Positions 1,239 through 37,600 of a stretch of 64,000 nucleotides of DNA are shown here, piece after piece. The notes beneath the pieces are model-generated. The model was not told the origin of the DNA and made no database searches. It saw nothing but the letters and a program-made list of their open reading frames with translations. A program made the position numbers and the translations under genes. Position 1 is the stretch's first letter; every line of letters begins with the position of its first letter. The stretch is from positions 14,975 through 78,974 of IMG/VR virus record IMGVR_UViG_3300032328_000934; one strand, 5' to 3'. This stretch comes from a virus. Lineage: Duplodnaviria > Caudoviricetes.

Positions 1239-2072
1239 TTACTTAAGAAAGTTAACTGCCTCATTGGCCAAACTCAATGCCCGCCGTATTGCCGTCTTGT
1301 CTTGCTTGAGGAGTTCATTCCAGTTGGCAAGGTAGGACAGGATGTTCGCATCTGACTCTGGTGTGATGCCGAACGTGGACGCTACGAACACACTACCCAA
1401 CTCGGCTACCAGTTCCTCAAAGGCATACGCCTTGTCTTTGTGGTTACCGATATTGATTCGACCAAGACGGCTTGGATGGCCCGTCCAATGGATTGTCTCA
1501 TGAGCAAGCACAGACCAGTAGTTGTCCTCTACTGGAAAGCTTTCGACAGGAGGCATGGTGATGTCGTCTGAGGCTGGACGATAGTACGCCTGAAACCCGG
1601 TGTTGACCCGGATATGGTGGCGTTCCAGCATTGCAGTAAACCGGTCTCGCACCGCGGTCTCGGACTCCTTTACTACTTCGACTGGTGGCTCCCAACCCTC
1701 CACTTGGGTTGAGTTGAAGACAACGATGTGTCGCCAGTACACGTACTGGCCGATAACCTCCTCGTTTGCGTCTTTCTTGTCTACCATGGTTGGGTTCTTC
1801 ACTAGCGTGATGCCCTTGGCACCAGCCTTGATTTTAGCACCCAACTTTTGCCACTGCGGGAATGTGGCATAGAACTGGGTGTGCTCCGTCTGAGCAAATG
1901 CCCGATACATTGCGAGGTAGACAGCGTTGTTACCGCTGTAGACATGGCCAGTCATGGCGTTTTGAGCGGAACCGCCTTTCCACGGTCGTACCCACTTCCC
2001 GGTTTTCATACCGCTCTCGATCGCATTCACCAGCTTTTCGACAAGCATCTCTGCCGGTTTTTGATTGCTCAT
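1239..2072 (-). CDS. ardC: ArdC-like antirestriction protein (ssDNA-binding N-domain plus zincin-like metallopeptidase)
   Basis: W.RPW...N..TG..YSG.N and ATF.QW...G..I..G.KG motifs; AHETIHWTGHPSRL and YAFEELVAELGS; GGAGG SD before ATG 2072. Confidence 0.9.
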   Translation of the reverse strand: MSNQKPAEMLVEKLVNAIESGMKTGKWVRPWKGGSAQNAMTGHVYSGNNAVYLAMYRAFAQTEHTQFYATFPQWQKLGAKIKAGAKGITLVKNPTMVDKKDANEEVIGQYVYWRHIVVFNSTQVEGWEPPVEVVKESETAVRDRFTAMLERHHIRVNTGFQAYYRPASDDITMPPVESFPVEDNYWSVLAHETIHWTGHPSRLGRINIGNHKDKAYAFEELVAELGSVFVASTFGITPESDANILSYLANWNELLKQDKTAIRRALSLANEAVNFLK

Positions 2073-2088
2073 GGCAACCTCCATCTGT

Positions 2089-2119
2089 AATTGCCGGAAG
2101 TAACGTGGCCCCGGCACTC
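2089..2119 (-). repeat. leader hairpin repeat A, copy 1
   Basis: Minus strand GAGTGCCGGGGCCACGTTACTTCCGGCAATT, just upstream of the ardC SD. Confidence 0.85.
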
Positions 2120-2125
2120 GACTAA

Positions 2126-2659
2126 CTACTTGAGGGTCGCGAATGGACCCCACTCAACCATATCCAACACGGTGATGTCGTCATTGGATATGTTGGACTC
2201 TTCGATACCACTGTACAGGTCGATGGGGGAGTCCATGCTCCCGTAGTGGCAGGATAGAAGCTCTCTGCCTTTCAGGAGCAAGCTAATTGCCTGCCCTGTG
2301 TCACAGATGTGTCTTGGATTGTACGCCTTAAAGACGACTTCCCGCAACTCACGTGGGTCTTTCATCCAGACCTCACGTTCTAAGAATGCAACGATCGCCG
2401 AGGGCGTCCGTTGCATACTCTTGCGCGTCCACTCTTCGAAGCGCATCACGACGGGTGCCCGCTTTAAGAACAGGATGCCAACTGCATCCTGCTGAACCAT
2501 GTGGTCCAACAGGATGGTCGTTGTTGTGGTCGGGTCATACATCCACTGTTCGCTGTCGTTATCTTCCAATAAGGCATCCGCAAAGGTGAGCCACAGTCTC
2601 TTGTTCTCTGGCCGAGATAGCCACTGCTTTCGGATGGCAAGCGTGTCACGTTTAGTCAT
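2126..2659 (-). CDS. hypothetical protein
   Basis: 177-aa ORF, start overlaps the upstream stop. Confidence 0.7.
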   Translation of the reverse strand: MTKRDTLAIRKQWLSRPENKRLWLTFADALLEDNDSEQWMYDPTTTTTILLDHMVQQDAVGILFLKRAPVVMRFEEWTRKSMQRTPSAIVAFLEREVWMKDPRELREVVFKAYNPRHICDTGQAISLLLKGRELLSCHYGSMDSPIDLYSGIEESNISNDDITVLDMVEWGPFATLK

Positions 2660-4347: not shown

Positions 4348-4365
4348 TGCGGTCTCCTCTAAGTT

Positions 4366-4398
4366 GATTGCCGGAAGTAACGTGTCCCCGGTACTCGA
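4366..4398 (-). repeat. leader hairpin repeat A, copy 2
   Basis: Plus strand gattgccggaagtaacgtgtccccggtactc. Confidence 0.85.
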
Positions 4399-4403
4399 AA
4401 AAA

Positions 4404-4916
4404 CTATTGAATAATTACCCAATCTCCGCCATCAAAGCCTGTGACGGCAATGTCTGGGGATAGTCCGTAGAAGAACGTAGCCTCGTCTTCTGGGTCTCCT
4501 TCTCGATAGTCGTCAAACCGGCAGAACTGAACGTGGTTGATACTACCGTCATCTTTCCACTGAATAGTACGATGAAAGTACCGACTCTCTTGCTCGACTT
4601 CCTCGACGTGGGCAACGAATTCATCGTCGTCTTCGTCAAGGTCGTCGTCGTCCTGATTGAACTCCGCCTCGAACGCTGAGGCGATGTCGCGAGTACGGAA
4701 CTGGAACCACTCGCGGGCCTTGTCTCGTGAGCCGTCGCCGTCGGGCTGGATGAACCGGTCCACGGCCTGCATGACCGTGAAGTGGCCCAAGTCGGGATAC
4801 TTCTCGGTCAGCCGAGTGGCCAATTGGTAGGGCACACTCTCCAAGAATGTCTGGCACAAGTCTTCGAGGATGACCAAAACTTCCTCGCTGAACCCCTTGT
4901 TGAACTCTACTGACAT
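4404..4916 (-). CDS. acidic hypothetical protein
   Basis: 170 aa with DDDDLDEDDDE tract; AAGGAG SD. Confidence 0.75.
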   Translation of the reverse strand: MSVEFNKGFSEEVLVILEDLCQTFLESVPYQLATRLTEKYPDLGHFTVMQAVDRFIQPDGDGSRDKAREWFQFRTRDIASAFEAEFNQDDDDLDEDDDEFVAHVEEVEQESRYFHRTIQWKDDGSINHVQFCRFDDYREGDPEDEATFFYGLSPDIAVTGFDGGDWVIIQ

Positions 4917-4933
4917 TACAGTCTCCTTACGTT

Positions 4934-4964
4934 AATTACCGGAAGTAACGTGTCCCCGGCACTC
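4934..4964 (-). repeat. leader hairpin repeat A, copy 3
   Basis: Plus strand aattaccggaagtaacgtgtccccggcactc. Confidence 0.85.
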
Positions 4965-4973
4965 AAGAAATCT

Positions 4974-5162: not shown

Positions 5163-5181
5163 GGTACACCTCTTCTCAACT

Positions 5182-5212
5182 AATTACCGGAAGTAACGTG
5201 GCCCCGGTGCTC
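5182..5212 (-). repeat. leader hairpin repeat A, copy 4
   Basis: Plus strand aattaccggaagtaacgtggccccggtgctc. Confidence 0.85.
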
Positions 5213-5218
5213 TACTGA

Positions 5219-5587
5219 CTAGGAAGAAAACTTAACAAGGAACTCTAGGCCAGTCTCTTTGCTGACCTCTTCGCGCTTGGCCATGCAAGCGTCAAAGTCC
5301 ATCTGCCGGTCTTTGCATTCCTTCCTAACTTCTTCCACGTCTAAACAGAAGTGTCGCCAACCGAACAAAGTGTCACCGCGTGGCGATACCACCATTGCGA
5401 CAATGTTGGCGGTATAAAACCAATCCGCCGTCAGCCAGACATACTCGTACTTTTCGCGAAGACTCCTATCCTCGTCTTTGGCACACTGTATGGCTTCCCC
5501 CTTCGTGGGGAAATCGTAAAATGTCATATGCACGACACTCCAGAAATTGCGTGATGCCGAGAACACCACCACTCTAAAGCATTGCAT
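5219..5587 (-). CDS. hypothetical protein
   Basis: 122-aa ORF; start uncertain. Confidence 0.6.
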   Translation of the reverse strand: MQCFRVVVFSASRNFWSVVHMTFYDFPTKGEAIQCAKDEDRSLREKYEYVWLTADWFYTANIVAMVVSPRGDTLFGWRHFCLDVEEVRKECKDRQMDFDACMAKREEVSKETGLEFLVKFSS

Positions 5588-5867: not shown

Positions 5868-5880
5868 GTCAGTTTCCTCG

Positions 5881-5918
5881 ATAATTGCGGGAAGTTGTCC
5901 TGTGTCCCCCGCTACCTC
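5881..5918 (-). repeat. leader hairpin repeat A, divergent copy 5
   Basis: Plus strand ataattgcgggaagttgtcctgtgtcccccgctacctc; sister of 6510-6548. Confidence 0.65.
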
Positions 5919-5935
5919 AGTGTGTGAAAAAAAAA

Positions 5936-6496: not shown

Positions 6497-6509
6497 GGTA
6501 TCCTCCTCG

Positions 6510-6548
6510 ATAATTGCGGAAAGTTGTACTGTATCCTCCGCCTACTCA
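6510..6548 (-). repeat. leader hairpin repeat A, divergent copy 6
   Basis: Plus strand ataattgcggaaagttgtactgtatcctccgcctactc; a TATAAT lies just upstream on the minus strand. Confidence 0.65.
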
Positions 6549-6555
6549 GTTATAA

Positions 6556-9225: not shown

Positions 9226-9302
9226 TACAACCTCCTAAATAAAAGAAAAGAAAACCATAATACCCATCTATTTATATACCGCGGATGGGTACGCGGGTGA
9301 AC

Positions 9303-9608
9303 CTATTTGACCAACTTATCGAAGTTGGCCAAGGCTATTTGCGAAGCTGACCGAGCCACCGCACGGCGGGCTGTGGCCTTGCCATCGGCGAACCCCGATT
9401 GATAGCCGTCATGCAGACCACGCAAACGAGTAGCGTTTACTATCTCGTCTACTTTCGAGGCCAATGGACGGGCGGTCAACTCCCGCCGGAGCTCAATTCG
9501 CTCCTTGAGGAGCTTGTCGACGACCTCGACTGCGTTGCGGTTTGAGAACCACCACGCGCCAAGGGTGAGGACGTTAGCGAGGATGAGAGCGATTAGTACG
9601 TACTCCAT
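9303..9608 (-). CDS. membrane-anchored hypothetical protein
   Basis: N-terminal TM helix, GxxxG-type repeat; GGAG SD before ATG 9608. Confidence 0.7.
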   Translation of the reverse strand: MEYVLIALILANVLTLGAWWFSNRNAVEVVDKLLKERIELRRELTARPLASKVDEIVNATRLRGLHDGYQSGFADGKATARRAVARSASQIALANFDKLVK

Positions 9609-9684
9609 GATGTTCTCCAATATACTAAACGAATAATACCAAAATCCCCCACACAAATACATGTGTGAGGGATGGACTAATGAC

Positions 9685-10083
9685 CTACAGACAATAATCG
9701 AAATGTTTGACTATCGTTTGTAGTCCTGCGGGAGACGCAGGTACGACGAAGCTGGGTGCCCCGTCCCAACGTCCTAGTGGGAAGTCCCACACCCAGCACT
9801 GACCGTTGGTTAACTCAAAGCCGACTGCCCGACCCGAGTATCCGGCGTGTTTCTCGATGAACTTAATTAGTCCATCGTTGTCGCCGAGTAACTCTTCGAG
9901 CGTAAAACCCTCGGTGGCCACCCGATTTGCGGTGCAGTCGTTGCACTCGCACTCTGGGTCGAACTCACAGCGTTTGGGTGTAGCGGACTGCTTTGCCGTG
10001 TGTTCGAGGAAGGTTGCCCAGCCGACCTTGCACTCCTCACACAGGCATTGGGCCATACCAACTTCTTCGTAAGTGCATTCCAT
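9685..10083 (-). CDS. Cys-rich hypothetical protein (two CxCxxC motifs)
   Basis: CLCEEC and CECNDC; AAGGAG SD before ATG 10083. Confidence 0.7.
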   Translation of the reverse strand: MECTYEEVGMAQCLCEECKVGWATFLEHTAKQSATPKRCEFDPECECNDCTANRVATEGFTLEELLGDNDGLIKFIEKHAGYSGRAVGFELTNGQCWVWDFPLGRWDGAPSFVVPASPAGLQTIVKHFDYCL

Positions 10084-10104
10084 GTTAGTCTCCTTAATTA
10101 AACG

Positions 10105-10145
10105 AATAATACCATAATACCCCAAACAAACACATGTGGGGAAAC
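10105..10145 (-). promoter_or_regulatory. conserved leader motif P (putative phage-type promoter or operator)
   Basis: Minus strand TTCCCCACATGT..TGTTTGGGGTATTAT; further copies at 9632-9672, 10881-10920, 11440-11474, 12085-12122 and 12813-12848, each 20-40 bp upstream of an SD. Confidence 0.7.
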
Positions 10146-10167
10146 TTGATTTCTCCGAACCTCACGG

Positions 10168-10252
10168 TATTCGAAATCTCCGAGCCTCTGGGATGAACCG
10201 TTAGCCAAGCCTGACATTATTCGAAACCTCCGAGCCTCCGGGATGAATCGTT
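10168..10252. repeat. 35-bp direct repeat x2, 50-bp period
   Basis: tattcgaaa(t/c)ctccgagcctc(t/c)gggatgaa(c/t)cgtt at 10168-10202 and 10218-10252. Confidence 0.85.
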
Positions 10253-10270
10253 CTACACATGGTGAGCAGA

Positions 10271-10391
10271 CATTAATCGTGCAAGGGAGGGGGCTTAATG
10301 CAGGGCCATCAACCAACCGCAGTTGGTTGGTGCCCTGCTGACAACACCATTCAGTAATTCGCGCACGAATTACTGAATGACCCGAGCGTGG
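10271..10391. repeat. twin-hairpin element H, copy 1
   Basis: About 120 bp, near-identical to 11496-11617; hairpins at 10300-10338 and 10348-10379, both with CGCA loops. Confidence 0.9.
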
Positions 10392-10416
10392 AACACCACG
10401 GCGAAGCCGGGGTTGT

Positions 10417-10452
10417 GCGATGTCTGTTCGCCGCTAGGCGATCAGACAGAGC
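10417..10452. repeat. hairpin element K, copy 1 (identical 36-bp copy at 12233-12268)
   Basis: gcgatgtctgttcgccgctaggcgatcagacagagc; stem GTCTG.TCGCC/GGCGA.CAGAC. Confidence 0.85.
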
Positions 10453-10453
10453 A

Positions 10454-10526
10454 GGGACCAGGGCAGGGGCTTTGGGCAGGGACCAGGGCAGGGGCTTTGG
10501 GCAGGGGCTTTGGGCAGGGACCAGGG
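10454..10526 (+). repeat. G-quadruplex-consensus tandem repeat (12 G3-4 tracts)
   Basis: Units of gggcaggggctttgggcagggacca; shorter copies at 11629-11656 and 12202-12229. Confidence 0.85.
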
Positions 10527-10586
10527 TTGGCGATGGCCGTGCGCTCGCAAGCGCGCAGCCATCGCGGGGAAGCTAATCGCAAGCAT

Positions 10587-10625
10587 AAAAAAAGGAGACA
10601 CACAACCCGAGGGTTGTGTGTCTCC
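10587..10625 (-). terminator. intrinsic terminator T, copy 1
   Basis: 15-bp inverted repeat followed by T7 on the minus strand, directly after the cassette stop. Confidence 0.85.
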
Positions 10626-10632
10626 GGTCGCA

Positions 10633-10854
10633 CTACAGGTAGTGCGCGAAGTGGCGAGCGAGGCTCTCCACCGATTCGGCGGTGTTTGGCCCGGACCAGA
10701 CCGGCGAGTCGTCGACGCCCGGGACCGCGTCCCAGACGACGACGGTCCCGCCCCACGCGGTGTCCCAAGTCACCTCACGCCCCACACGGGACGCGTTGAG
10801 AGCGATGACGACCAAGAGGACGGTGATTGAGTGGCGAGTTGCTGAGTTGTTCAC
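10633..10854 (-). CDS. cassette gene 1, hypothetical protein
   Basis: GGAG SD before GTG 10854; bracketed by motif P and terminator T. Confidence 0.6.
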   Translation of the reverse strand: MNNSATRHSITVLLVVIALNASRVGREVTWDTAWGGTVVVWDAVPGVDDSPVWSGPNTAESVESLARHFAHYL

Positions 10855-10983
10855 TGTAGTCTCCAAACACTAATGCAGAATTGCATAATACCCCAAACAA
10901 ATACATGTGGGGAAATGCAAGTAACGAGTGAGTTAACATTAATCGGATAACCCAGGGTGCGTGGAGGAGCTAATCACAAGGAT

Positions 10984-11022
10984 AAAAAAAGGAGATACAC
11001 AACCCTCGGGTTGTGTATCTCC
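10984..11022 (-). terminator. intrinsic terminator T, copy 2
   Basis: ggagatacacaaccc-tc-gggttgtgtatctcc plus A7 on the plus strand. Confidence 0.9.
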
Positions 11023-11028
11023 GTGTGG

Positions 11029-11406
11029 TTAACGACCCTGAAGCCAAGGGTCGTTGGCTTCAGACTCGGGGTCGAAGTCCCCGTTGGATTCGGCCTCGGG
11101 GTCGAACCGCTCGATGCCGGTCGGGCCGTCCCCGTTCCATCCCGGGACCCCACCCTCCGGGTCGTGTTGCCAGTACTCCACTGGCACCGCCGGTTTCTCT
11201 TCCCATGGCGCGCGGGGGAAGGGTGTCGGCGGGTACGGCCGTGGGGCTGGCTCGTCATCCTCGTCGTCGAGGATGGACCGGTCCGGTGCGGGTGGGGTGT
11301 GGATGGTGAGGCGCGCCTCACCGTAGACCATTTCGACGACCACGCGTGTGGCGCCGAGTACGGTGACCGTGGAGTCGGACGGGACGGTAATTGTGAATTT
11401 AGGCAT
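11029..11406 (-). CDS. cassette gene 2, small beta-rich N-terminus with acidic/Pro-rich disordered tail
   Basis: 125 aa, AAAGGA SD, bracketed by P and T. Confidence 0.7.
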   Translation of the reverse strand: MPKFTITVPSDSTVTVLGATRVVVEMVYGEARLTIHTPPAPDRSILDDEDDEPAPRPYPPTPFPRAPWEEKPAVPVEYWQHDPEGGVPGWNGDGPTGIERFDPEAESNGDFDPESEANDPWLQGR

Positions 11407-11495
11407 CGGTGTTTCCTTTCTGGGAAACTATGCAAGAATTTGCAAAATACTCCAAACATATACATGTGGGGAATAGTGTATACGGAGTGAGTTAA

Positions 11496-11617
11496 CATTA
11501 ATCGTGCAAGGGGAGGGGCTTAATGCAGGGCCATCAACTAACCGCAGTTAGTTGGTGCCCTGCTGACAACACCATTCACTAATTCGCGCACGAATTAGTG
11601 AATGACCCGAGCGTGGA
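11496..11617. repeat. twin-hairpin element H, copy 2
   Basis: Hairpins at 11525-11563 and 11573-11604, each with one compensatory base-pair swap relative to copy 1. Confidence 0.9.
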
Positions 11618-11682
11618 TGTATGGACCAGGGCAGGGGCTTTGGGCAGGGACCAGGGTGCGTGGAGGAGCTAATTGCAAGCAT

Positions 11683-11721
11683 AAAAAAAGGAGATACACA
11701 ACCCTCGGGTTGTGTATCTCC
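11683..11721 (-). terminator. intrinsic terminator T, copy 3
   Basis: Same hairpin plus A tract. Confidence 0.9.
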
Positions 11722-11727
11722 GGTCGG

Positions 11728-12054
11728 TTAATTGGCCAACATGACTTCGTAGTCAGCGGCCGTATATACCTGCAAGGTGAACTCTGCCTCGAACCGACGG
11801 CGTCCCTTGCCAATCCACCGAGTCCCTAAGCTCATCCACGTCCAGCCCCACAGCCGGTATTGGGAAGACTCCACGGTGTGGTACCACCCAGCCACAACAC
11901 GGTCCGAGATGGCTTTCGCGGACTGCGGACATGCTAAGAGCATGGCCGAAACGGGGTCGGTGGCGACGCGACGCCAGACGACCTCGCGTAGGACCTGATT
12001 CGGATGGACACGGCTGAGAGATGCTCGCACTGAGCCGACGATGACGTATTCCAC
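11728..12054 (-). CDS. cassette gene 3, hypothetical protein
   Basis: 108 aa, AGGAGG SD, GTG start, bracketed by P and T. Confidence 0.7.
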   Translation of the reverse strand: MEYVIVGSVRASLSRVHPNQVLREVVWRRVATDPVSAMLLACPQSAKAISDRVVAGWYHTVESSQYRLWGWTWMSLGTRWIGKGRRRFEAEFTLQVYTAADYEVMLAN

Positions 12055-12288
12055 AGGAACCTCCTAACTAAAGAAAAGAATTCAAAATCTCTCAAACACC
12101 TACATGTGGGGAAATGCAAGTAACGAGTGAGCAGACATTAATCGGATAACCCAGGGTTGGGGGCTTCATCGAGGCCTTGGCCGAGATGCGCGAGTGACCT
12201 AGGGCAGGGGCTTTGGGCAGGGACCAGGGTTGGCGATGTCTGTTCGCCGCTAGGCGATCAGACAGAGCGGGGAGCTAATTGTAAGCAT

Positions 12289-12327
12289 AAAAAAAGGAGA
12301 TACACAACCCTCGGGTTGTGTATCTCC
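12289..12327 (-). terminator. intrinsic terminator T, copy 4
   Basis: Same hairpin plus A7. Confidence 0.9.
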
Positions 12328-12334
12328 GTGTGTG

Positions 12335-12778
12335 CTACCAACGGCAGGCATTTTCCTGCTTCGTTGCGTAATTGGCGTCTGACTCGGCTGAGTCGATGGC
12401 GGCTTGCATGTGCCAAGCCGTCCATGCCTTAGTGCCGAAATTCATCGCTTCAAGAGCGTGTTGCTCTGCGCGATGGGCACGGTAGGCGTCACTCCAACCG
12501 TTACGGGTTCCGCGACGGTGAGCTGCGGCCAAGGCTGATTTGGCTTTGTTGCTCAAGCGGATTGCCCAGACGAATTCGACGAGCATTTCACAGGCGGTGA
12601 GGACCAAACCCACGACTGCGCCGATGGCAAGGCCGTACTCGGAGGCGGCGTACGAGTAGAGATACCACACCGCACCGCCGAACAAGGTCGCGCACACCAG
12701 TGCAAGGACGAATGACCGAAACACCAACGCGCGAACGATTACGAACAACATGTTGCCGAGATTGAGAATGAGTGACAT
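12335..12778 (-). CDS. cassette gene 4, membrane protein (2-3 TM helices)
   Basis: AAAGGA SD before ATG 12778; hydrophobic N-terminal half. Confidence 0.7.
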   Translation of the reverse strand: MSLILNLGNMLFVIVRALVFRSFVLALVCATLFGGAVWYLYSYAASEYGLAIGAVVGLVLTACEMLVEFVWAIRLSNKAKSALAAAHRRGTRNGWSDAYRAHRAEQHALEAMNFGTKAWTAWHMQAAIDSAESDANYATKQENACRW

Positions 12779-13053
12779 GGTTGTTTCCTTTCTAAGAAAA
12801 CTATTGCAAAAATTGCATAATACCTCAAACATATACATGTGGGGAAAGCGCAAATGACGGATAAGGTAGCATTGATCGTGTGAGATACAGCATGACGAGT
12901 GAGAAGACACTGATCGTAACTGACGCGCACATGAAGGATAGCTCGCGTACATGGGGGGTAGACACAAAGGCCACCACTCAGACTTCGCCCCACTCCCCTG
13001 TCATACTCAAATTTTTAAAAAACACTACGACCTGTTTTGCGTTCCTGCCGCTG

Positions 13054-13083
13054 AACAAAAAAAAACACCCCCTTTCGGGGGTG
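13054..13083 (-). terminator. intrinsic terminator
   Basis: Minus strand CACCCCC-GAAA-GGGGGTG followed by T9. Confidence 0.9.
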
Positions 13084-13106
13084 AACAGGACGAACCGGCC
13101 AATTCC

Positions 13107-13156
13107 TAGCGTACTGCCATTAGCGTACTGCTATTAGCGTACTGCTATTAGCGTAC
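13107..13156. repeat. 14-bp tandem repeat x3.5
   Basis: tagcgtactgc(c/t)at. Confidence 0.85.
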
Positions 13157-13333
13157 GGCCAACGTGTCGGCAAACTTCATTGCTGCGAGATCTCCGTCTT
13201 CGATTGAATCAAAAAACTCAACCCAATGTGAATCCCCGTCGCGACTTTCCACAGAGAACACGTATTTATCGTTGCGTGTGCTCCATTGGTAGACGATGTA
13301 TACTTTGCCGTACTTGCGTCGTTTCGGTTTCAT
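13148..13333 (-). CDS. hypothetical protein
   Basis: 61 aa, AGGAAG SD. Confidence 0.6.
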   Translation of the reverse strand: MKPKRRKYGKVYIVYQWSTRNDKYVFSVESRDGDSHWVEFFDSIEDGDLAAMKFADTLAVR

Positions 13334-13342
13334 GGCCGCTTC

Positions 13343-13699
13343 CTAATAAATGACTAATCCCCGAACAGCCTTGATGTTACCATCGGCATCACGGATCGCG
13401 GTAGGGCCAGTATCGAGTGCATACACGTCTTCACGTTCTTTGCCTTCGGGGCTGTTGGCCACAATCATGCTCGTAATGTATATTACACCGTCTTCAGGAT
13501 CTGGCAGATTCTCTATCTCGGTGAACAGCGGTACGTGTACCGGAATCTCTATGTTGTTCTCCGTCCATACACTCGCAACTCGGTAGGATTTCTGGCCAAC
13601 ACGAGCGGCAGGTAAGGTCGGTTCAATAATAATGTCGGCCTCATCGACGCGAATGGTGATCGCGTGAGGGGTTAGGTTAATCAGTTTCGTCATATTCAC
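13343..13699 (-). CDS. conserved phage protein, NLTPH family
   Basis: INLTPH.I ... LP.P..G..YITS..VA ... RD..G.I motif pattern; function unknown. Confidence 0.7.
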   Translation of the reverse strand: MNMTKLINLTPHAITIRVDEADIIIEPTLPAARVGQKSYRVASVWTENNIEIPVHVPLFTEIENLPDPEDGVIYITSMIVANSPEGKEREDVYALDTGPTAIRDADGNIKAVRGLVIY

Positions 13700-13881
13700 T
13701 GTGTGTGTCCTTTAACAGTAGTGTGTTCTGCAACTTTGTAATGCATCAAGCGGGTAAGGTACTCTAGCTGATCGAGCAACATGTCCATACGTGCTGCGGC
13801 AGCATTACTTACATCTGGGCTTTGCACTTCGTCATCAATCTTTTGACGAAGTGCAGCAAACTCCTGCTCAAGTGCGGCCAT
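13696..13881 (-). CDS. small helical hypothetical protein
   Basis: 61 aa, AAGG SD. Confidence 0.6.
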   Translation of the reverse strand: MAALEQEFAALRQKIDDEVQSPDVSNAAAARMDMLLDQLEYLTRLMHYKVAEHTTVKGHTQ

Positions 13882-13892
13882 AAGACGCCCTT

Positions 13893-15344
13893 CTACTGCG
13901 TTAGTGCAGTTAGTGCAGCGGATGGATCGTAGCGATCATCCATAATTGTGGACAACATGACAGACTCTGCGGTGATGCTGTCAAGATTGCCTGACAGCAC
14001 ACTCTTCAGGATTGCCGGGGAAAAGCCACTGACCATCGCAGTATTGCGGTCGTGTTGCGTGACGCTCTTATCAAGGTCACGTACCTCGGCTTGGTTGAGG
14101 TTCCAGAATATGACTGTTGGGGCAGTGTATCCTTCGGCCTCATACTTGCGACGAATCATTTCGATTGCGCGATCGTCGTGTTTCACACAGGCATTAAACT
14201 GCATGTCCGACAGGATCAGCAACACTTGTGGCATTTCCTCTTGCGATACCTTGCCTTCCTTGGCCACGCGTAAAATCTCTTCAAGTGCGGCGTTCAAATC
14301 GGTACTTGTTTCCCAATGTGCACGAGACAGTTGATTAAATTTCTCCACAATGTTTCCCTTAAGAACTTGCAGTCGCGGTTTTGACGAAAAAGTCAAAAAC
14401 GTGTCCTTAAACGGGCCAAGGTTTTTGTCAGCGACGTACATACCCAACGAAAGAGCGACGCTCAACGCGGTCAGGCCACTCTTTGAAAGCGACACTGAAC
14501 CCATTGATCCTGAGACGTCAACGAGGGCGAGTACTCGTGCGTCCCCGACATAGTTGGGAAGCGAATTCCACTGCTGTGCAATGAAGCTCGTCTCAACCTG
14601 CCCCAAGCGATGGAAGTTTTGGCTAAGCAAAGAGACAATCACATCGTGAGGAAAGATTGCCCCAGCGTTTACTTTAACCCCTTCCTTATTGCTCTGCAAA
14701 TCGCTCACATATTGGGTGTACGCCTGCTCTGCATTGCGATAAAACGCTTTGCGGTAGCGAGCTGCGGCGACTGACGGGACGTGTGAGAAGTTAATGGAAT
14801 CCCAATCCTTCGCACACATCTTCGTCTCAACCACGTTGGTGAGCGAGACCAACATGGTACGGTATTGCTTCCAGCTCATTAACAAGTAGCAACGCAACTT
14901 GTCTGCAACAGGCCCTTTGCGGGGCATCCACTTCGCGCATAACGGATTCTTCTGCTCGAGTCCTTCGGCGATTAGGCTGAATGCGAACCGTTGGCAGCGT
15001 TCAGTCTCGAACACGAGGAGATCATCCCAGCGACCAAGTTCGGAAACGCGAGTGGCCAAACCCATTGCAAGCAACGGGCGTGAGACCTCGAGTAACCGCA
15101 AAATCTTGCGGAAAAACTCACGCTCTCCAGCTCCCTTACGCACATCACGGCCCCACAACGCAATGCGAAGTGCGTACATTGGGTTTTCAACCAATGCGGC
15201 GGTGAACGGGGCAGTAATGTCGGCGTCACGGTACTCGCTTACACTTGAAAAAAGATCAAGGCAGCGACTACCACTTGAAACAAGGCTCTTCATGCCATTC
15301 TCAGTCCGGGTTGTCTGGGCCATCACGGCCTGTGCAAAGGTCAT
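13893..15344 (-). CDS. Ro60/TROVE-like RNA-binding protein with C-terminal VWA domain (DUF2828-type)
   Basis: RDVRKGAGER, GRWDDL, AKWMPRKG, VPSVAAARYRKAF; MIDAS DVSGSMGS, T and ILSDMQF; AAGGAG SD. Confidence 0.85.
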   Translation of the reverse strand: MTFAQAVMAQTTRTENGMKSLVSSGSRCLDLFSSVSEYRDADITAPFTAALVENPMYALRIALWGRDVRKGAGEREFFRKILRLLEVSRPLLAMGLATRVSELGRWDDLLVFETERCQRFAFSLIAEGLEQKNPLCAKWMPRKGPVADKLRCYLLMSWKQYRTMLVSLTNVVETKMCAKDWDSINFSHVPSVAAARYRKAFYRNAEQAYTQYVSDLQSNKEGVKVNAGAIFPHDVIVSLLSQNFHRLGQVETSFIAQQWNSLPNYVGDARVLALVDVSGSMGSVSLSKSGLTALSVALSLGMYVADKNLGPFKDTFLTFSSKPRLQVLKGNIVEKFNQLSRAHWETSTDLNAALEEILRVAKEGKVSQEEMPQVLLILSDMQFNACVKHDDRAIEMIRRKYEAEGYTAPTVIFWNLNQAEVRDLDKSVTQHDRNTAMVSGFSPAILKSVLSGNLDSITAESVMLSTIMDDRYDPSAALTALTQ

Positions 15345-20792: not shown

Positions 20793-23387
20793 TTACCTCA
20801 CTGTACTTGATGTAGTTGCTCTGGCCAGCCCCGCGGGAGCGACTACGTCGATACGCTCGCGTAATGCGGCAATAAAACATAGGTAGCTGGCATAAATATG
20901 ATCGTCTGTGCTTTCTCCATGACCTCTCGGCGACACAACAAAGTAATGGACATGTCCGCTAGTACGTCGTTGGCGTGCCACACGTTCAAGTTGAGAGACG
21001 CCCTCGGCGTCAACCTCAGAGAAACCTATAGTTTTTCTTTGTATGTGTTTAACAAGTTCACTGGTGGCCCACGCCTTGAACGACTCGGTAATCTGAGTTC
21101 CGTCGTGGATAGTTCCTACAAGAATCTTTTCGTTAAACTGTACGGGGATAATTCGCTTCGAGTACATGCTCGCTGCGTACTCAGAACGCGAAGTTAAGCT
21201 CTGTACGATACCTGCACCACCCCCACCGGCTCCGACGTCTATGGCGATCTTATTGGCACCATAGCTGCGTGCAAGATAGTCAATTGCTCGCTCTTGTTCC
21301 GGGAAGTCAATACGCTGCATTTTATAACGAACGTGGCATTTCCACATGTCGTTGACTAATGCAAATACCTGAATGATCGTAGGGTCGGAGAAACCGGTAT
21401 CGATTGCAAATACAATCCCGTCGTTCTTAGGTAAAGTTACAATTGGAAGCGCTTCCGATATAGAACGGCCAGTCTCTTTTTCTTTAGCCGTGTATTGATA
21501 CGAGAAAAAGTCGTACGGCTGAATACTCATTTGATCCCGGGAGATTACTTGGAACGTCGGTGAACCATGCTTACCAAGAACCAACTGTTGAAAAATATCC
21601 TCGTTCTCTCCCCCGTAACGACGGATCGCATCGTCCCAGTCTGCTTTAGTAAAGTATGGATTGTTTGGAGCCGGGATGCGGTACTTTTTAAACTTTGGTG
21701 TTTTGACATCAAGCACGTAAAGTGCCGTGTTTCTCATACCGTTCGGCACACCACAATAAATTTCCTGCACTCTTGGTTCCCACGTATTAATTGTAGGTTG
21801 TAGTTGATAGAACGCAGTCATAGGAAACAACTGAAACTCGTCTCCGGTAACCTTAGGAATGTGCAGACCGACCAAGTTGTTTGCCTCCTTACTACCTGCG
21901 ATACGGGCGTAAAGGCGGTGCTTTCGCGTACCCATCTGAAAGTCTAACGTGCCCTTGGATCGATTTATGTTGTTATTTAAAAAATCCTTGAGTAAAGGAC
22001 TTGTAGTAAACTTTAGAATTACCCGGTCAAGAATCGGTGTGAGCTGATTGGTGTTCGGTGTTACCAAAAGCTGCTCAGGAGTCTTTGGAAACTCAATGGT
22101 TGAGTTAACTATTTGGTAAGTCAGTAAATCCTCAAGAATTACCGAGTTGTGTACAATTATATTTTCTGAGATGTACGTCTCATCTTGATACACATGCACC
22201 GAGTACGTCTGCGCCCTTGATCCCTTGATTTTAGCGGTAACACGATCCCACTCGACTGTTTGAACTGGCGGCACGTTCTCTCGAGTTATTGAAACACTGA
22301 CTCCGGGTAGCGTAAACTCACTCCAGAACCGCCGTGCATTAACACGATCGAGTGTCTCAACTTCCCACACCGAATCGTCAATATCAAAGATATGATGCTC
22401 GGACGCATGGTCAGTTATCTTCATAGCTCGAGTCCTTACTCCAAAGTAAAGCAACAACTCTTGCCAATCTTTTACGTACTGCTCATTAAGTAACTTGATC
22501 TTTACTGACTCTAAAGTAAGGTGCCCGTATTGAGCGTAGGCTGCTTCCATAAACGTGCGGATATTGTCTAGCCTTTGATTTTTAATCCAATCTAGACGAA
22601 ATACTTGGCGAGCATCCTTGGCCAATAAATTTAACTCTTGCTTAAGTTGATTCATGTAGTGACGTACCCCACCCGCTTTAATGCGTTCTAAGAAGACACG
22701 ACCCTGCTCATCTTTGCGGTAAGTTAGGTACAGGTGGTGGGCAATATCTCGCAGCTCCGCATCGATCTTTTTAAAACGCGGGGTAATACCGACGGAGGCT
22801 TTATGAAAGACCGAGCCTGAGGCAAGGTACCCAAGTGCACGCAACTCGTGCCACGACAGCGTATCGTAAGTGCAGTGGTCTGTAGGTAACTTACCTGCGG
22901 CCGCAACTAGGTCACCAATTACTAAATCCCCCATAAGGATAAATCCTTTGGGGGTAAGAATAGGATGCAGGTCAGTCGCTTTTATTTGGTTACCGCTCGA
23001 GGTCATCAACGTCCACACCGGTTTCCACTGATCTCTTCGAATAAATCCCCGACGAAGTGTGAACTCTCCGGATGTGGAGTATCCGTAGGTCACGAAAGAC
23101 TTTCTTTTTAAAAGTTTGGTTATTGTCTCATAACCCCTGTCGGTAAGAATACGCGCCGAGGCTGGTTGACACTTTCCGATTGCACGTCCACCGGTTACTA
23201 CAATGTGTGCCGATTGATCACTGAGAATTTCTCGTTGAAACGGGCGGAAAAAGAATTCCTCGGCGGGCCAGTTGGATTTGTTCATGTCAGCTGTGTTAGT
23301 AGAGCGAAGAAACTCATTCAACCAAACGGGATCCTCTATTATCTCAAGTAGTGCGAGATCCGCGTCATCTAGCTTAGTTTTCAGCAT
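20793..23387 (-). CDS. terL: terminase large subunit (intein-containing)
   Basis: Walker A GGRAIGK|S split by an intein, Walker B TGDEFQ, nuclease AIDTGFSDPT and DDHIYA; AGGAGG SD before ATG 23387. Confidence 0.9.
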   Translation of the reverse strand: MLKTKLDDADLALLEIIEDPVWLNEFLRSTNTADMNKSNWPAEEFFFRPFQREILSDQSAHIVVTGGRAIGKCQPASARILTDRGYETITKLLKRKSFVTYGYSTSGEFTLRRGFIRRDQWKPVWTLMTSSGNQIKATDLHPILTPKGFILMGDLVIGDLVAAAGKLPTDHCTYDTLSWHELRALGYLASGSVFHKASVGITPRFKKIDAELRDIAHHLYLTYRKDEQGRVFLERIKAGGVRHYMNQLKQELNLLAKDARQVFRLDWIKNQRLDNIRTFMEAAYAQYGHLTLESVKIKLLNEQYVKDWQELLLYFGVRTRAMKITDHASEHHIFDIDDSVWEVETLDRVNARRFWSEFTLPGVSVSITRENVPPVQTVEWDRVTAKIKGSRAQTYSVHVYQDETYISENIIVHNSVILEDLLTYQIVNSTIEFPKTPEQLLVTPNTNQLTPILDRVILKFTTSPLLKDFLNNNINRSKGTLDFQMGTRKHRLYARIAGSKEANNLVGLHIPKVTGDEFQLFPMTAFYQLQPTINTWEPRVQEIYCGVPNGMRNTALYVLDVKTPKFKKYRIPAPNNPYFTKADWDDAIRRYGGENEDIFQQLVLGKHGSPTFQVISRDQMSIQPYDFFSYQYTAKEKETGRSISEALPIVTLPKNDGIVFAIDTGFSDPTIIQVFALVNDMWKCHVRYKMQRIDFPEQERAIDYLARSYGANKIAIDVGAGGGGAGIVQSLTSRSEYAASMYSKRIIPVQFNEKILVGTIHDGTQITESFKAWATSELVKHIQRKTIGFSEVDAEGVSQLERVARQRRTSGHVHYFVVSPRGHGESTDDHIYASYLCFIAALRERIDVVAPAGLARATTSSTVR
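22146..23171 (-). mobile_element. intein, 342 aa, with degenerate LAGLIDADG homing endonuclease
   Basis: Begins CQPASARILT (C1), has block B TDLHPILT, ends IIVHN followed by S+1. Confidence 0.92.
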
Positions 23388-24018
23388 CGAATGCCTCCTG
23401 ACTGAAATCATCTGACAGCACTAAGTCATCTTCCTCTACATCAGCCGAACTGCCGGATTGTTTAGAGTTAACTACAGTATATCGATGTTTTTTACGCCAG
23501 CTGGAATCAGCAATGTCGAAGAAAATATCCCTCTCCTCGCGAGAAGCTGAAACTGCTTTGTTACACTGATTACAGTTAACTTTTAGTGTAAATCGAGAAT
23601 GATCGTGCATAATAGAAAACCGTCCCAAGAGAATTTTACAATCTGGGCAGTAGAGTTTAACTAGGCGGCGTTCAAGAAAGTCTTGGGCAGTAGCCTTGAG
23701 ATTAACGATATACTCAGCTATTGAATCTGACTTGTCGTTCGTTCTGGTTTTTCTATCTAGTGCGAGTGCCCGCTCCAACTGTAGATTACGTTCAATGATG
23801 TCTTTAAGAGACGATCCCAAACGTTGAATCATATCAATATTATCTACGGGGTCGTCAGCGGTTAAGTCCTGAAGCTTTGCTTGAAGAGTTTCAATAATAA
23901 CTTGATTATTAATGAGCATTTCAAGGTTCGCTCGGTCGTTCGGAGAAGATAACGTAACTAAGTCGTATTTGTCCGAATAGTCTTTTAAAATCTCACTAAA
24001 CCTACGATTCTTTGTCAT
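23374..24018 (-). CDS. probable terminase small subunit (Zn-ribbon containing)
   Basis: Immediately upstream of and overlapping TerL; helical N-terminal half plus CPDC/CNQC. Confidence 0.55.
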   Translation of the reverse strand: MTKNRRFSEILKDYSDKYDLVTLSSPNDRANLEMLINNQVIIETLQAKLQDLTADDPVDNIDMIQRLGSSLKDIIERNLQLERALALDRKTRTNDKSDSIAEYIVNLKATAQDFLERRLVKLYCPDCKILLGRFSIMHDHSRFTLKVNCNQCNKAVSASREERDIFFDIADSSWRKKHRYTVVNSKQSGSSADVEEDDLVLSDDFSQEAFDAEN

Positions 24019-34668: not shown

Positions 34669-37600
34669 ATGGCCGATGAGATACAGAAAGCAACAGAAGA
34701 TTTAAAACTACTGTTGCAGGCTTTGGAGGCTGTCAACGCAACTGAAAAGGGAGCAGCGCAGATTAAACCAGTGCTGGCAGAAATAGGCGGTAAAGAAGGT
34801 TTAGACGCATATAAAAGTGTAGCTGATTCAGCTGAAGCAGGAGTTTACCTGAGTCAATTGAACTCAATGATCAAGGCGCACGAGCAAATAAATAGACTTA
34901 TTCAGGAACAGATTCAACTAACTAAAACAGCAACCGAGTCAATGTCATCAAAACCAGCTCAAGGGGCAGATCAGTCTTGGTGGAATACAGTTGAACCCGC
35001 CCAAGTCTCAGTTCAAGCTCCAGCTCCAGCAGTCCCTGCTCAAGCCCCAGCAGCTCCGAGCAGGCCTGCCCCCGTGCGTGTGTCGAGATCTTCAAGTGAA
35101 CCGGTTGTTCTTCCCGTAGATCACAGAGATTCTACACAATACGCTTTGGTAAGCAGCAACACGGCACCGCCGTTAAGAAGTAGTGTCGGAAACCGCCCGC
35201 AAGGAGTTTCTGATACAGAATCAATTATTAAATACATTTCGGAAAATCCACATTTGCTTGCAACTCCTGCGGGTACCTACGACGAGGCAACAACTAAGAA
35301 AATAGTATATCTTCAACAATTAGTTGAAAGGGCATTGAAAGGGAAATCGAATAAAAATGCAGAAGCACTAATAGTCAATCAATTCAGAAGTTTATTTCCT
35401 GTAACAAAGGACTCTACTTTTCGTCAATTACAGGGCAGTGTAGGAGATCGTCCTGCTGGAATGGACTCACTTGAAAAAATTGTACAGTATGTCTCACAAA
35501 ATCCCGAGCAATTGGCGGCTGTTTCTGAAAATACACATACTGAAGAGACTGTTGAAAGATTAAATTCTTTTTTACAAGGGATTGCAAAAACTCGTTCGGG
35601 ACGTGCTGACTCTGCAACTAGAGTTCAAACTGTACTTGATTTTAGAAAACTTTTTCCTAAAGATTCTTCCAAAGTTGCAACCCAAGATTCACGCGCCGTA
35701 CTTATCGATACAATAAAAAGCGTGTTTAGTCATATAGGCATGGCTGATATGCCAGCCATTCAAAATTTACCTGAAGCAAACGACCAGTATATAATGGATC
35801 TTTTAAAGGATTCGATTGCGCGAGTCGGGGTAGTTAATCCGGATACAGGTCGGGTGAACGTAGCCAACTTAGAAGTCACACCTACGCCCTCAAGACTGGT
35901 TCGCATTATACGTGGATTAGGGAGAGTTGTTAAACAAGCAATTACGCGCCGTTCAGTCAGCACATCTGAGGTAGACGCGAGTGATCTATCTGCAGAAGTA
36001 ATAACACAAGTAGAAGATTTTAGAGAATCTGACCCTATTGAAGAACAGGTGCTGGCTGATGAAATAGGCGGAAAAATTTTTAAACCAATAGGTAATAGTG
36101 GCGGTGGCACAGTCTATGCGAGATCAAGCAGGTTTACAAATAATAAAGCGCAAGAGTCGTTGCGAAATTCAATACGAGGTAATAAAGATTATAAAGAAAA
36201 TGTAGAAGAAATTCAGGATAAAGTGGCTAATGCTCAAGGTACTGATGTAACTGGCTATGATGCTTCGTCCGTATTTCCAATATCTAGTGTTCAATCAATA
36301 TCCCAAAGTATTAAGGCCCAACGCGAGCAAGTAAACGAAGAAATTGTTGCCGGTAAGTTTAAAGAAGTTGAAATTGGCGGCAGAATTTACAGATTACCTG
36401 AAACTTTAGCAAACAAACAAGTGGCTATTGCTCGCGCCGCTCACTCGATGAGTAAAGATACTAGTCTTGTAGGTAGACGCGCTCGAAGTGATAGAAAAGG
36501 TGGCATAGGTATTTACGGTGCCGCTTCTATACAGGATGAGACAATCAACTTACACGCCGCGGCAATGCTCGAGCATTATCTTAGCAACCCAGAAGAACCA
36601 ATAGAATCTAGTTTAGATTCTCAGTTTATGCGCGAGGTTGTAACTCAAGAATTAGATATAGATCAGCCTAGAGATGCTAATACTCAAAATGCTTTGCGCT
36701 TGTATGCACAACGTTCTATAGAATCTTTGCAATCAACAGCTGACTTTGCGTATGAGAATGTGGCCGCAGCTACAAACCCGGCAGGCAGGACTGCACAAGT
36801 AAACTTTGCAGAACGGACATTGCAGCAAAAAGCATTTATAGAAAAAATTCTTTCAGCCAAGACTTCCAGAGAAGAGCGCGGCAGGATGTTAGATATACCT
36901 AAGCGTGTTTTGACCCCAGAATTGCAAGAACAACGAAATCAAATACAAAAGAAAGCAATTCAAAATTTACTAGATCAAGGTCATAGTGCAGATAAAATAA
37001 AAGAACTTGCAGAAAGTTATGCTGAGGGTACATTAACTCCTGAACAGCGACGTCCACTTCAGGAGTTAATCGACTTTGATACACATAATGAAAGAACCGT
37101 AGAAGTAGAGGGTGAGTATGAACCTTTAACAATTGATCAGGCATTAACGTATATCTACGGTGCTGATATTGCAGCAGTACCTAAGTTTGAGGACGCCTCC
37201 ATAGGTATACGAAGATATGCTACTAAAGTCAGCAAAGGGCTTGCTAAAAAGGGAGTCGCCCGTCCGGCAAGGCCTTACCGAACTAAAACTACTTTCGGTA
37301 AAATTATGGGTACTGCAACAAATGAGGGAATGTACGAATCGCTGGATGATAAACTTAAAAAAGAATCTAGTTTTGAAGATCAGCTGAGCTCAGTTGGGCT
37401 TAGAGGTACAGAGCGTGATTACCGAGATGCAGAAAGACCGGGTGTTGCTCCAGATACTGCACTAACCGGTCCTAATATGACTCGACCGTTAATGATGCGG
37501 CAAGAAATATATGATTTAGTAGACGATTTTTTTGGGCTCTCTACTGATAAAAACGCTGGCCTACTGAGCACCGTCAACTACGCGAGTCAACTCACAGATG

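Follow-up and report, generated by a model that had tools for sequence, protein, structure and literature searches.

The virus contig IMGVR_UViG_3300032328_000934 (Duplodnaviria; Caudoviricetes) carries a tandem array of six single-gene units, named A to F, on its minus strand. The stretch analysed here, referred to as the window, comprises the last 64 kb (64,000 nucleotides) of this 78,974-bp contig; coordinates are window positions unless marked as genome, and the array occupies 9300–12920. The locus is probably a hyperplastic accessory-gene array, in which self-contained units are shuffled by homologous recombination between the expression signals repeated around them. Small, mutually unrelated genes, each in a fixed register with near-identical signals, and relatives that differ by whole units with breakpoints on those signals define this organization.

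Each open reading frame (ORF) of the array is preceded by a copy of leader P, an element of about 59 nt found in five close copies and a weaker sixth, compared with 0.05 copies in shuffled sequences. Terminator T consists of a 14-bp perfect stem followed by U7 (T7 on the minus-strand DNA), and its four copies (against 0 in shuffles) lie 5–10 nt past the stop codons of A, B, C, and D. A first-pass annotation of the same DNA had described four unrelated ORFs, at 10633, 11029, 11728, and 12335, each with its own leader and terminator, as an array of four cassettes. These ORFs are real, lie on the minus strand, encode mutually unrelated products, and carry both signals far above shuffled expectation; the array itself is longer, with six units that extend through E and F, and all six proteins are mutually unrelated. 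The start of F was corrected from 9662 to 9608, and A starts at 12778. The spacers, given earlier as 160–550 bp, measure 174, 321, 280, and 549 bp.

Cassette E lacks a copy of T. In its place, E is followed at once by a 12-pair terminator-like hairpin formed by the CACACATGT...TGTGTG region of P6, a composite in which terminator and promoter are fused. A -10-like core (GAGGTATTATGC), a CCCCACATGT box, and a Shine-Dalgarno sequence are present in leader P1 of cassette A. The sole core common to the two leader types found in this lineage and to an adjacent promoter outside the array is a -10-like GGGTATT(A/T)TGG with a Shine-Dalgarno sequence downstream. A sigma-70 consensus scan (-35 and -10) gave no match at P; among motifs compared by eye, namely a -35 hexamer, sigma-B-type, and Bacteroidetes-type motifs, none fits all copies. 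T has the form of a canonical intrinsic terminator, with an activity predicted from its motifs. The coordinates of these and the remaining features are collected in Table 1.

Table 1. Features of the cassette array and of a second repeat family in the window.
Feature	Position	Strand	Remark
Leader P1, cassette A	12789..12847	-	putative promoter
S box and leader P2, cassette B	12056..12144	-	putative promoter
S box and leader P3, cassette C	11416..11504	-	putative promoter
S box and leader P4, cassette D	10857..10945	-	putative promoter
Leader P5, cassette E	10086-10144	-	putative promoter
Leader P6, before F	9613..9673	-	diverged copy
Terminator T4, after A	12289..12327	-	predicted
Terminator T3, after B	11683..11721	-	predicted
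Terminator T2, after C	10984..11022	-	predicted
Terminator T1, after D	10587..10625	-	predicted; stem variant with compensatory C-G pair, flipped loop
Two S-like boxes (CGATyrrTG)	12870..12916	-	upstream edge of the hot spot
K hairpin and C-rich repeats	12196..12268	-	K 12233-12268; C-rich/plus-strand G4-motif repeats 12196-12229
Post-terminator block after T3	11514..11656	-	C-rich/G4 repeats 11623-11656; twin-hairpin module 11514-11618
Twin hairpin in block after T3	11514-11618	-	H 11573-11604; hp2 11525-11563; outer helix closes both
Long post-terminator block after T1	10289..10565	-	K2 10530-10565; C-rich/G4 repeats 10455-10526; K 10417-10452
Twin hairpin in long block	10289-10393	-	H 10348-10379; hp2 10300-10338
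S box and direct repeats (DR)	within 10086..10279	-	S box 10258-10279; DR copies of ~48 nt 10155-10202 and 10205-10252
Cassette gene A	12335..12778	-	147 aa, predicted membrane protein, no family
Cassette gene B	11728..12054	-	108 aa, no family
Cassette gene C	11029..11406	-	125 aa, conserved EYWQHDP...NDPWLQGR motifs
Cassette gene D	10633..10854	-	73 aa, hydrophobic segment at N-terminus
Cassette gene E	9685..10083	-	132 aa, Cys-rich, no family
Gene F	9303..9608	-	101 aa, last array unit, conserved in relatives
Second repeat family	2083-2128, 4360-4405, 4928-4973, 5176-5221		also 5875-5921, 6504-6550

DNA patterns, protein context, and IMG/VR were used to recover relatives, which stem from independent IMG/VR, JGI, and ENA assemblies. 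Nine related metagenome contigs vary in cassette content and order. One of them (L081) matches the window at 98.4% identity across 9.3 kb, as far as 12892; this position, just past an S box, marks the upstream edge of the hot spot. Inside the array, L081 encodes A2, a homolog of A with 23% identity, has no B, retains C at 34% identity, and uses the other leader type; it shares T, the H/hp2 hairpins, and the C-rich repeats with the window. Homologs at higher identity occur elsewhere, with A at 74% in L089 and B at 94% in L082.

Two indels resolve single units. Contigs L085 and L087, which belong to one project and to separate samples, differ by exactly one 430-bp unit, and the sequence to either side of it is 99.2% identical. 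The unit consists of spacer, leader, gene C, and T and is bounded by a 47-bp perfect direct repeat corresponding to T. A contig from a third sample (L086) agrees with L085 on the C-containing form. L085, L086, and L087 trace to the ENA entries ERZ19567623, ERZ19525807, and ERZ19400403, respectively. In L099, the 3' end of C (98% amino acid identity) and T are joined directly to spacer 1 and E; the alignment blocks overlap exactly on T, and unit D is therefore missing at a T-bounded indel.

Order and occupancy differ as well. The window order C-D-E-F is replaced by C-E-D-F in L083, L085, and L087, with homology at 38–60% identity. The first slot after the upstream markers holds A in the window, A2 in L081, X in L085–L087, and Y followed by A in L089; X, Y, and G are cassette families new in the relatives. 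In an NCBI contig known as a gene map only, whose marker gene is 96% identical, the first slot holds a 307-aa EcoRI-type DNA methylase (PF13651). Within each genome, one leader type is used across all cassettes, whatever the ORF family. The loop of T follows the same pattern of concerted evolution, with a private variant in three of the four window copies and UGCG in 15 of 15 copies from seven other contigs. The flanks of T are mixed: among the four window copies, left-flank and right-flank types occur in all four combinations.

The first-pass annotation had inferred a recombination-driven shuffling of cassettes and proposed a comparison of relatives for cassette turnover. That comparison was positive. 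Loss and gain, replacement, and reordering, with breakpoints on shared parts, are the opposite of the identical gene order with decayed spacers that had been named as contrary evidence, and this turnover supports the shuffling inference.

A simpler account describes the locus as an ordinary accessory or host-takeover region, where the repeats are duplicated expression signals, the differences represent general mosaicism, and the repeats are not causal. Many phages, SPO1, T5, and T7 among them, have arrays of strong early promoters. Distant phages with a Ro-like gene (L035:15190-18040; L060, L072: 13984, 20416, 20764, 21058) also place perfect sigma-70 promoters (TTGACA-17-TATAAT within ...TTTTGGGTATATAATA) in front of one small ORF after another, in four to six identical copies and without repeated terminators. 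Repeated early promoters therefore characterize the wider group, and only this lineage has the full kit. Moreover, gene G (118 aa; L083:2439-2795 and L090:1345-1701), which in L083 and L090/L091 separates F from the next conserved gene and which is absent from the window and from L085/L087, varies at a site whose indel edges carry no kit parts. Such an account is nonetheless unlikely, given the two independent unit-precise indels with both ends on T, one of them with a 47-bp perfect repeat, the drop from 98.4% identity that begins at an S box on the array edge, and the homogenization of leaders and terminators per genome.

Under shuffling by homologous recombination, each small ORFan would be its own transcription unit, composed of a lineage-specific leader, the ORF, and a strong intrinsic terminator. 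The near-identical signals (T, 47 nt perfect; P, about 60 nt; the twin hairpin of the spacers, about 105 nt) would double as portable homology. The enzyme and intermediates we infer: recombination between copies would be carried out by the RecA-family protein and RecB/Cas4-type nuclease of the phage, or by host enzymes. Whole units could in this way be deleted, inserted, replaced, or reordered, and every unit would stay expressible. Replication template switching would be an alternative route to the same outcome, and gene conversion would homogenize the regulatory pieces of any one genome. Homologous recombination or template switching is favored because the junctions lie in long perfect repeats, the breakpoints fall on T and S, and homogenization is genome-specific. 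The phage encodes a RecA-family protein (3.8e-34) and a PDDEXK_1/Cas4-type nuclease (2.3e-26), together with a PDDEXK_15 nuclease and a family-A polymerase.

Integron-like capture would instead involve a dedicated recombinase that acts on folded hairpin sites and inserts or excises circular cassettes. The likeness to integrons, which the first-pass annotation had drawn at the level of logic, lies in tandem unrelated single-gene units, here ORFans, in a hairpin-forming site at each cassette end, and in unit-precise gain, loss, and reordering. The likeness ends there. Searches of the complete genome for tyrosine recombinases (PF00589), serine recombinases (PF00239), and Y1 transposases (PF01797) gave no match, with positive controls detected, so that the earlier statement that no integrase or transposase lies in the window holds for the whole genome; IntI would be expected beside an integron array. 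Integron cassettes are promoterless and served by one promoter (Pc), whereas every cassette here has its own leader. The attC site is imperfect, with extrahelical bases, in contrast to the perfect 14-bp stem and U-tract of T, which are those of a canonical terminator. Breakpoints are also marked by other parts (S and P), and the junctions in long perfect repeats, along with the RecA-family protein and RecB/Cas4-type nuclease, fit homologous rather than site-specific exchange. Capture of this kind is accordingly very improbable for this locus.

The spacers contain S boxes, a twin hairpin (H and hp2), K and K2 hairpins, C-rich repeats of 12–13 nt, and two DR of ~48 nt. In a whole-genome scan, the array parts were confined to window 9600–12920, apart from a single diverged block where the arm ends. 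The first-pass annotation had viewed the spacers as different orders of a shared kit; the parts (S, H, hp2, K, K2, DR, and G-rich repeats) are indeed present, and their free reordering is not. Order is colinear, namely T, K/K2, C-rich repeats, in some cases K, H with hp2, S, DR, and P, and spacers differ mainly in presence or absence.

A conserved tail of ~25 nt always follows T, and in several spacers K/K2, C-rich repeats, and the ~105-nt twin hairpin come next. The spacer from T2 to P4 carries neither a G-rich tract nor a twin hairpin, the block being wholly absent. A third copy of the block occurs at genome 14811–14960 (minus strand), where an arm-end terminator of another type precedes the conserved tail, a twin hairpin in diverged form, and C-rich repeats, and no cassette follows. 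The presence of the block at the arm end without a cassette indicates that it goes with termination, not capture.

Across eight copies, the twin hairpin shows double compensatory changes in 7 of 33 pairs, with 99.6% of cells paired. None of 500 shuffles reached the observed covariation values, and slid controls collapsed. The sole one-sided change, G-C to G-U, keeps pairing on the gene-sense strand only. Loops on that strand mostly read UGCG; T1 and the H hairpin at the arm end have flipped loops. Folding of spacer 1 on both strands gave z = -5.2 and -7.8, values that do not tell the strands apart. Selection at the RNA level is likely and not proven, because these two loops are flipped and palindromes can gain paired changes by hairpin-templated mutation.

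All six canonical G-quadruplex (G4) motifs on the plus strand of the genome fall in the post-terminator blocks, compared with 0.6 expected by shuffling. The sense-strand C-minus-G excess of the C-rich tracts (0.24–0.35) belongs to the top 1% of the arm, and they form its most C-rich, G-poor 78-nt windows. The window has 2 to 5 units per tract, L082 has 4, and L083 has as many as 9. Rfam returned no match over the window at gathering scores, nor within 9500–13200 at E ≤ 1, and about 55 more distant loci searched with a covariance model built on the twin hairpin contained no copy. T was not found in 185,579 prokaryote genomes, and pattern scans of IMG/VR for T, H, hp2, and the G-rich unit matched only L081.

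We tentatively propose, as a possibility that is on balance doubtful, that the post-terminator block provides fail-safe insulation against read-through transcripts. Stable hairpins could operate together with a C-rich, G-poor tract resembling a Rho-loading (rut-like) site, or with a G4 roadblock on the template strand. If this were the case, terminator and block could provide compact insulating parts for synthetic constructs, drawn from a conserved structured block outside known families.

A different role for the same structures has been considered, in which plus-strand G4 tracts, twin hairpins, or both stall replication or attract RecA and thereby initiate recombination, a form of programmed structure-stimulated diversification. 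In Neisseria, a G4 upstream of pilE reportedly drives RecA-dependent antigenic variation of pilin, and the array resembles that case in that G4 motifs of one strand lie next to sequence varying through RecA-type recombination. Placement of all six plus-strand motifs in the spacers and arm end, copy-number variation of the tract between relatives, conservation of the hairpins through compensatory change, and a RecA encoded by the phage would all agree with such an initiator. However, both mapped indel junctions lie in T, outside the G-rich tract. The T2-to-P4 spacer has no G-rich tract or twin hairpin, the same block stands at an arm end where there are no cassettes, and the G4 motifs are predicted ones. 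This initiating role is decidedly unlikely; were it true, the array would be a RecA-dependent, self-contained locus for accessory or anti-defence diversification that needs no site-specific recombinase.

Several points weigh against shuffling by homologous recombination, or against parts of it. Junctions in perfect repeats are also what slippage, or an unknown site-specific enzyme acting on T, would leave. The promoter assignment of P, without a recognizable -35, is drawn from its position and conserved -10-like core, and early expression is presumed, with terminase and lysis genes lying upstream of the array in the same arm. Paired changes and flipped loops in perfect palindromes may stem from DNA-level hairpin-templated mutation without RNA selection. 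Insulation is the weakest step, as a strong terminator already lies upstream of the block and the T2-to-P4 spacer lacks the block; a Rho-based version would further depend on Rho in the host. Finally, the relatives are all short-read metagenome contigs, most of which break inside the array, and some orders may be strain chimeras. This last caveat is eased by the length of the indel repeat, since 47 bp is shorter than the usual final k-mers and read lengths.

Taken to its extreme, the chimera argument would make the repeats or the variable orders products of mis-assembled strain mixtures, in data that are all metagenome assemblies, with repeats of up to 131 nt and most contigs breaking at this point. 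Such an artefact, which the first-pass annotation had listed as a possible refutation, is extremely improbable. Assemblies made independently in three sources contain the same parts, the C-containing form is seen in two samples (L085 and L086), and only 47 bp of perfect repeat lie at the indel.

The termination of many metagenome contigs in the array could also be read as the mark of a physical genome end, a replication origin, or a T5-like injection stop, in which case the repeats would be cis-acting DNA signals; spacer 1, which unites direct repeats, palindromes, and G-rich tracts, would fit such a function. Yet successive intergenic regions repeat the parts, and these keep a fixed register to the start and stop codons. 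Three contigs, namely that of the window, L085, and L087, span the array uninterrupted, and breaks are expected at repeats with strain variation. A stronger origin candidate is located at genome 14,220–14,700, just left of the window, where a ~500-bp AT-rich non-coding gap separates convergent arms. Four perfect DnaA boxes (TGTGGATAA) occur in the genome, two of them in this gap (14,220–14,470), accompanied by two near-variants, and none in the array. An origin in the array is therefore unlikely, and the three functions, all raised as alternatives in the first-pass annotation, together carry a low probability.

The array had been put forward as a candidate for an undescribed system. A described analogue exists in the promoter-early stem-loop (PeSL) elements from hyperplastic regions of T4-type phages, where composite early promoter/stem-loop motifs flank ORFans and near-identical phages differ by motif-bounded ORFans (Arbiol et al. 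2010, PMC2839356; Comeau et al. 2014, PMC4122927). Recombination between PeSL motifs leads to deletions, insertions, and minicircles (PMC2839356, PMC4122927). In both systems, a promoter/terminator composite is repeated, here as six copies of P and four of T in register with starts and stops, as judged by motifs. The motifs populate an ORFan-rich region, variable ORFs are motif-bounded (here C in L085/L087, D in the window and L099, and the missing B of L081), and inserted genes bring their own promoter and terminator. Homologous recombination between motifs is invoked in both, and the stem-loop fused to a promoter has its counterpart in P6.

Differences concern the signals and the host genome alike. 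The PeSL promoter matches the sigma-70 consensus, whereas P has no consensus -35, and terminator and promoter here are separate modules, 100–500 bp apart. Twin hairpins, K hairpins, the C-rich/G4 minisatellite, and direct repeats form an additional spacer block. The PeSL phages are T4-type myoviruses, in contrast to the siphovirus-like phage with its 4665-aa tape-measure ORF. To our knowledge, PeSL-mediated shuffling has been documented so far in T4-type myoviruses only. The locus probably represents a PeSL-type modular shuffling logic in a new lineage and in a more elaborate form.

Other known arrangements share single aspects of the array. Lambdoid morons are single genes that sit between other phage genes and bring a promoter and a terminator along; they resemble these units in carrying their own signals and in being variably present among relatives, and differ in being isolated and having unrelated signals, whereas the six tandem units share homogenized ones. 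The terminal redundancy of SPO1 and the pre-early region of T5 serve early host takeover and contain strong promoters and terminators in many copies. In halovirus HF2, intergenic repeats carry promoters (PMC8707807). These three share with the array a dense set of small ORFs with a repeated promoter at each or nearly each, and differ from it in that no cassette-exchange role has been described for their repeats. Bacterial interspersed mosaic elements (BIME) and repetitive extragenic palindromes (REP) are mosaic extragenic elements of enterobacteria. Like the spacers, they are mosaics of palindromes and short motifs in post-terminator intergenic sites; unlike them, they are associated with the RAYT/Y1 transposase (PF01797), not found here, and the elements of the array are phage-borne and lineage-restricted.

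The locus extends PeSL logic to an unrelated, uncultured siphovirus-like lineage and provides natural population snapshots of its predicted products, which include unit-precise indels on repeats, reordering, and per-genome homogenization of signals. These observations suggest that the use of repeated expression signals as portable homology may be a general phage route to the turnover of accessory genes, which are probably involved in host takeover or anti-defence. The post-terminator block, with its ~105-nt twin hairpin supported by seven compensatory pairs and its strand-specific C-rich/G4 minisatellite, adds a lineage-specific element with a testable role.

The cassette genes remain outside described families, with Pfam and PHROGs returning none for proteins A–F. 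Among 1.8 billion representatives, a profile search with the C family gave six matches, which are uninformative as to function; three cover giant repeat proteins in part. For protein E, the protein atlas held no usable match, and its AlphaFold model reached a predicted local distance difference test (pLDDT) value of only 64. A search for further loci with the C and E families yielded nothing new. The cargo probably serves host takeover or anti-defence; the latter is hinted at by the EcoRI-type methylase in one relative and by an ArdC-like gene further down the arm. This gene (1239–2153, minus strand) encodes a 304-aa protein with an ArdC N-terminal domain and a polyvalent-type zincin metallopeptidase, for which an anti-restriction function is likely.

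The contig is a single sequence, estimated as 100% complete by CheckV, and has no terminal repeat. The genome is organized in two arms, with structural genes on the plus strand and the cassette array in the minus-strand arm, where the array has a GC content of 53–59%. The tail module (34669–48666) of the plus-strand arm contains one tape-measure-like ORF of 4665 aa, an extreme length for a tape-measure protein. Megablast of the array region found no DNA match among GenBank phages. Protein identity to cultured phages, none of them T4-type, reached at most 42% for the terminase region and at most 29% for PolA. The closest cultured relatives are cyanophages and a Pontimonas phage (28–42% identity), and the cyanobacterial HIP1 palindrome is not enriched in the genome. 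The phage is thus an uncultured, ~79-kb, siphovirus-like member of a lineage unrelated to the T4-type phages.

Additional observations concern other loci. An 872-aa ORF at 20793–23411 (minus strand) carries a Terminase_6C domain and a weak intein-splicing match, and is probably a large terminase with an intein. Immediately upstream of the array, at 13893–15344 (minus strand), a Ro60/TROVE-like protein with a von Willebrand factor A (vWA) domain (DUF2828/DUF7788, phrog_850) is encoded; ~80 IMG/VR phage contigs, some longer than 100 kb, carry it at 44–57% identity. In L028, L032, and L033, up to eight dispersed copies of exact repeats of 18–22 nt lie at ~12930–15320 over apparent ribosome-binding sites and start codons, which suggests a tandem family of paralogous small genes.

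Further down the arm, a second family of intergenic repeats of ~46 nt (core ATTRCCGGAAGTAACGTG.CCCCGG) is found between ORFans. It is unrelated to the array parts and may represent another class of regulatory signal. Finally, a 14-bp tandem repeat (TAGCGTACTGCYAT) lies at 13107–13159, between gene u61 and its terminator, with four copies in the window compared with two in the 98.4%-identical relative L081.

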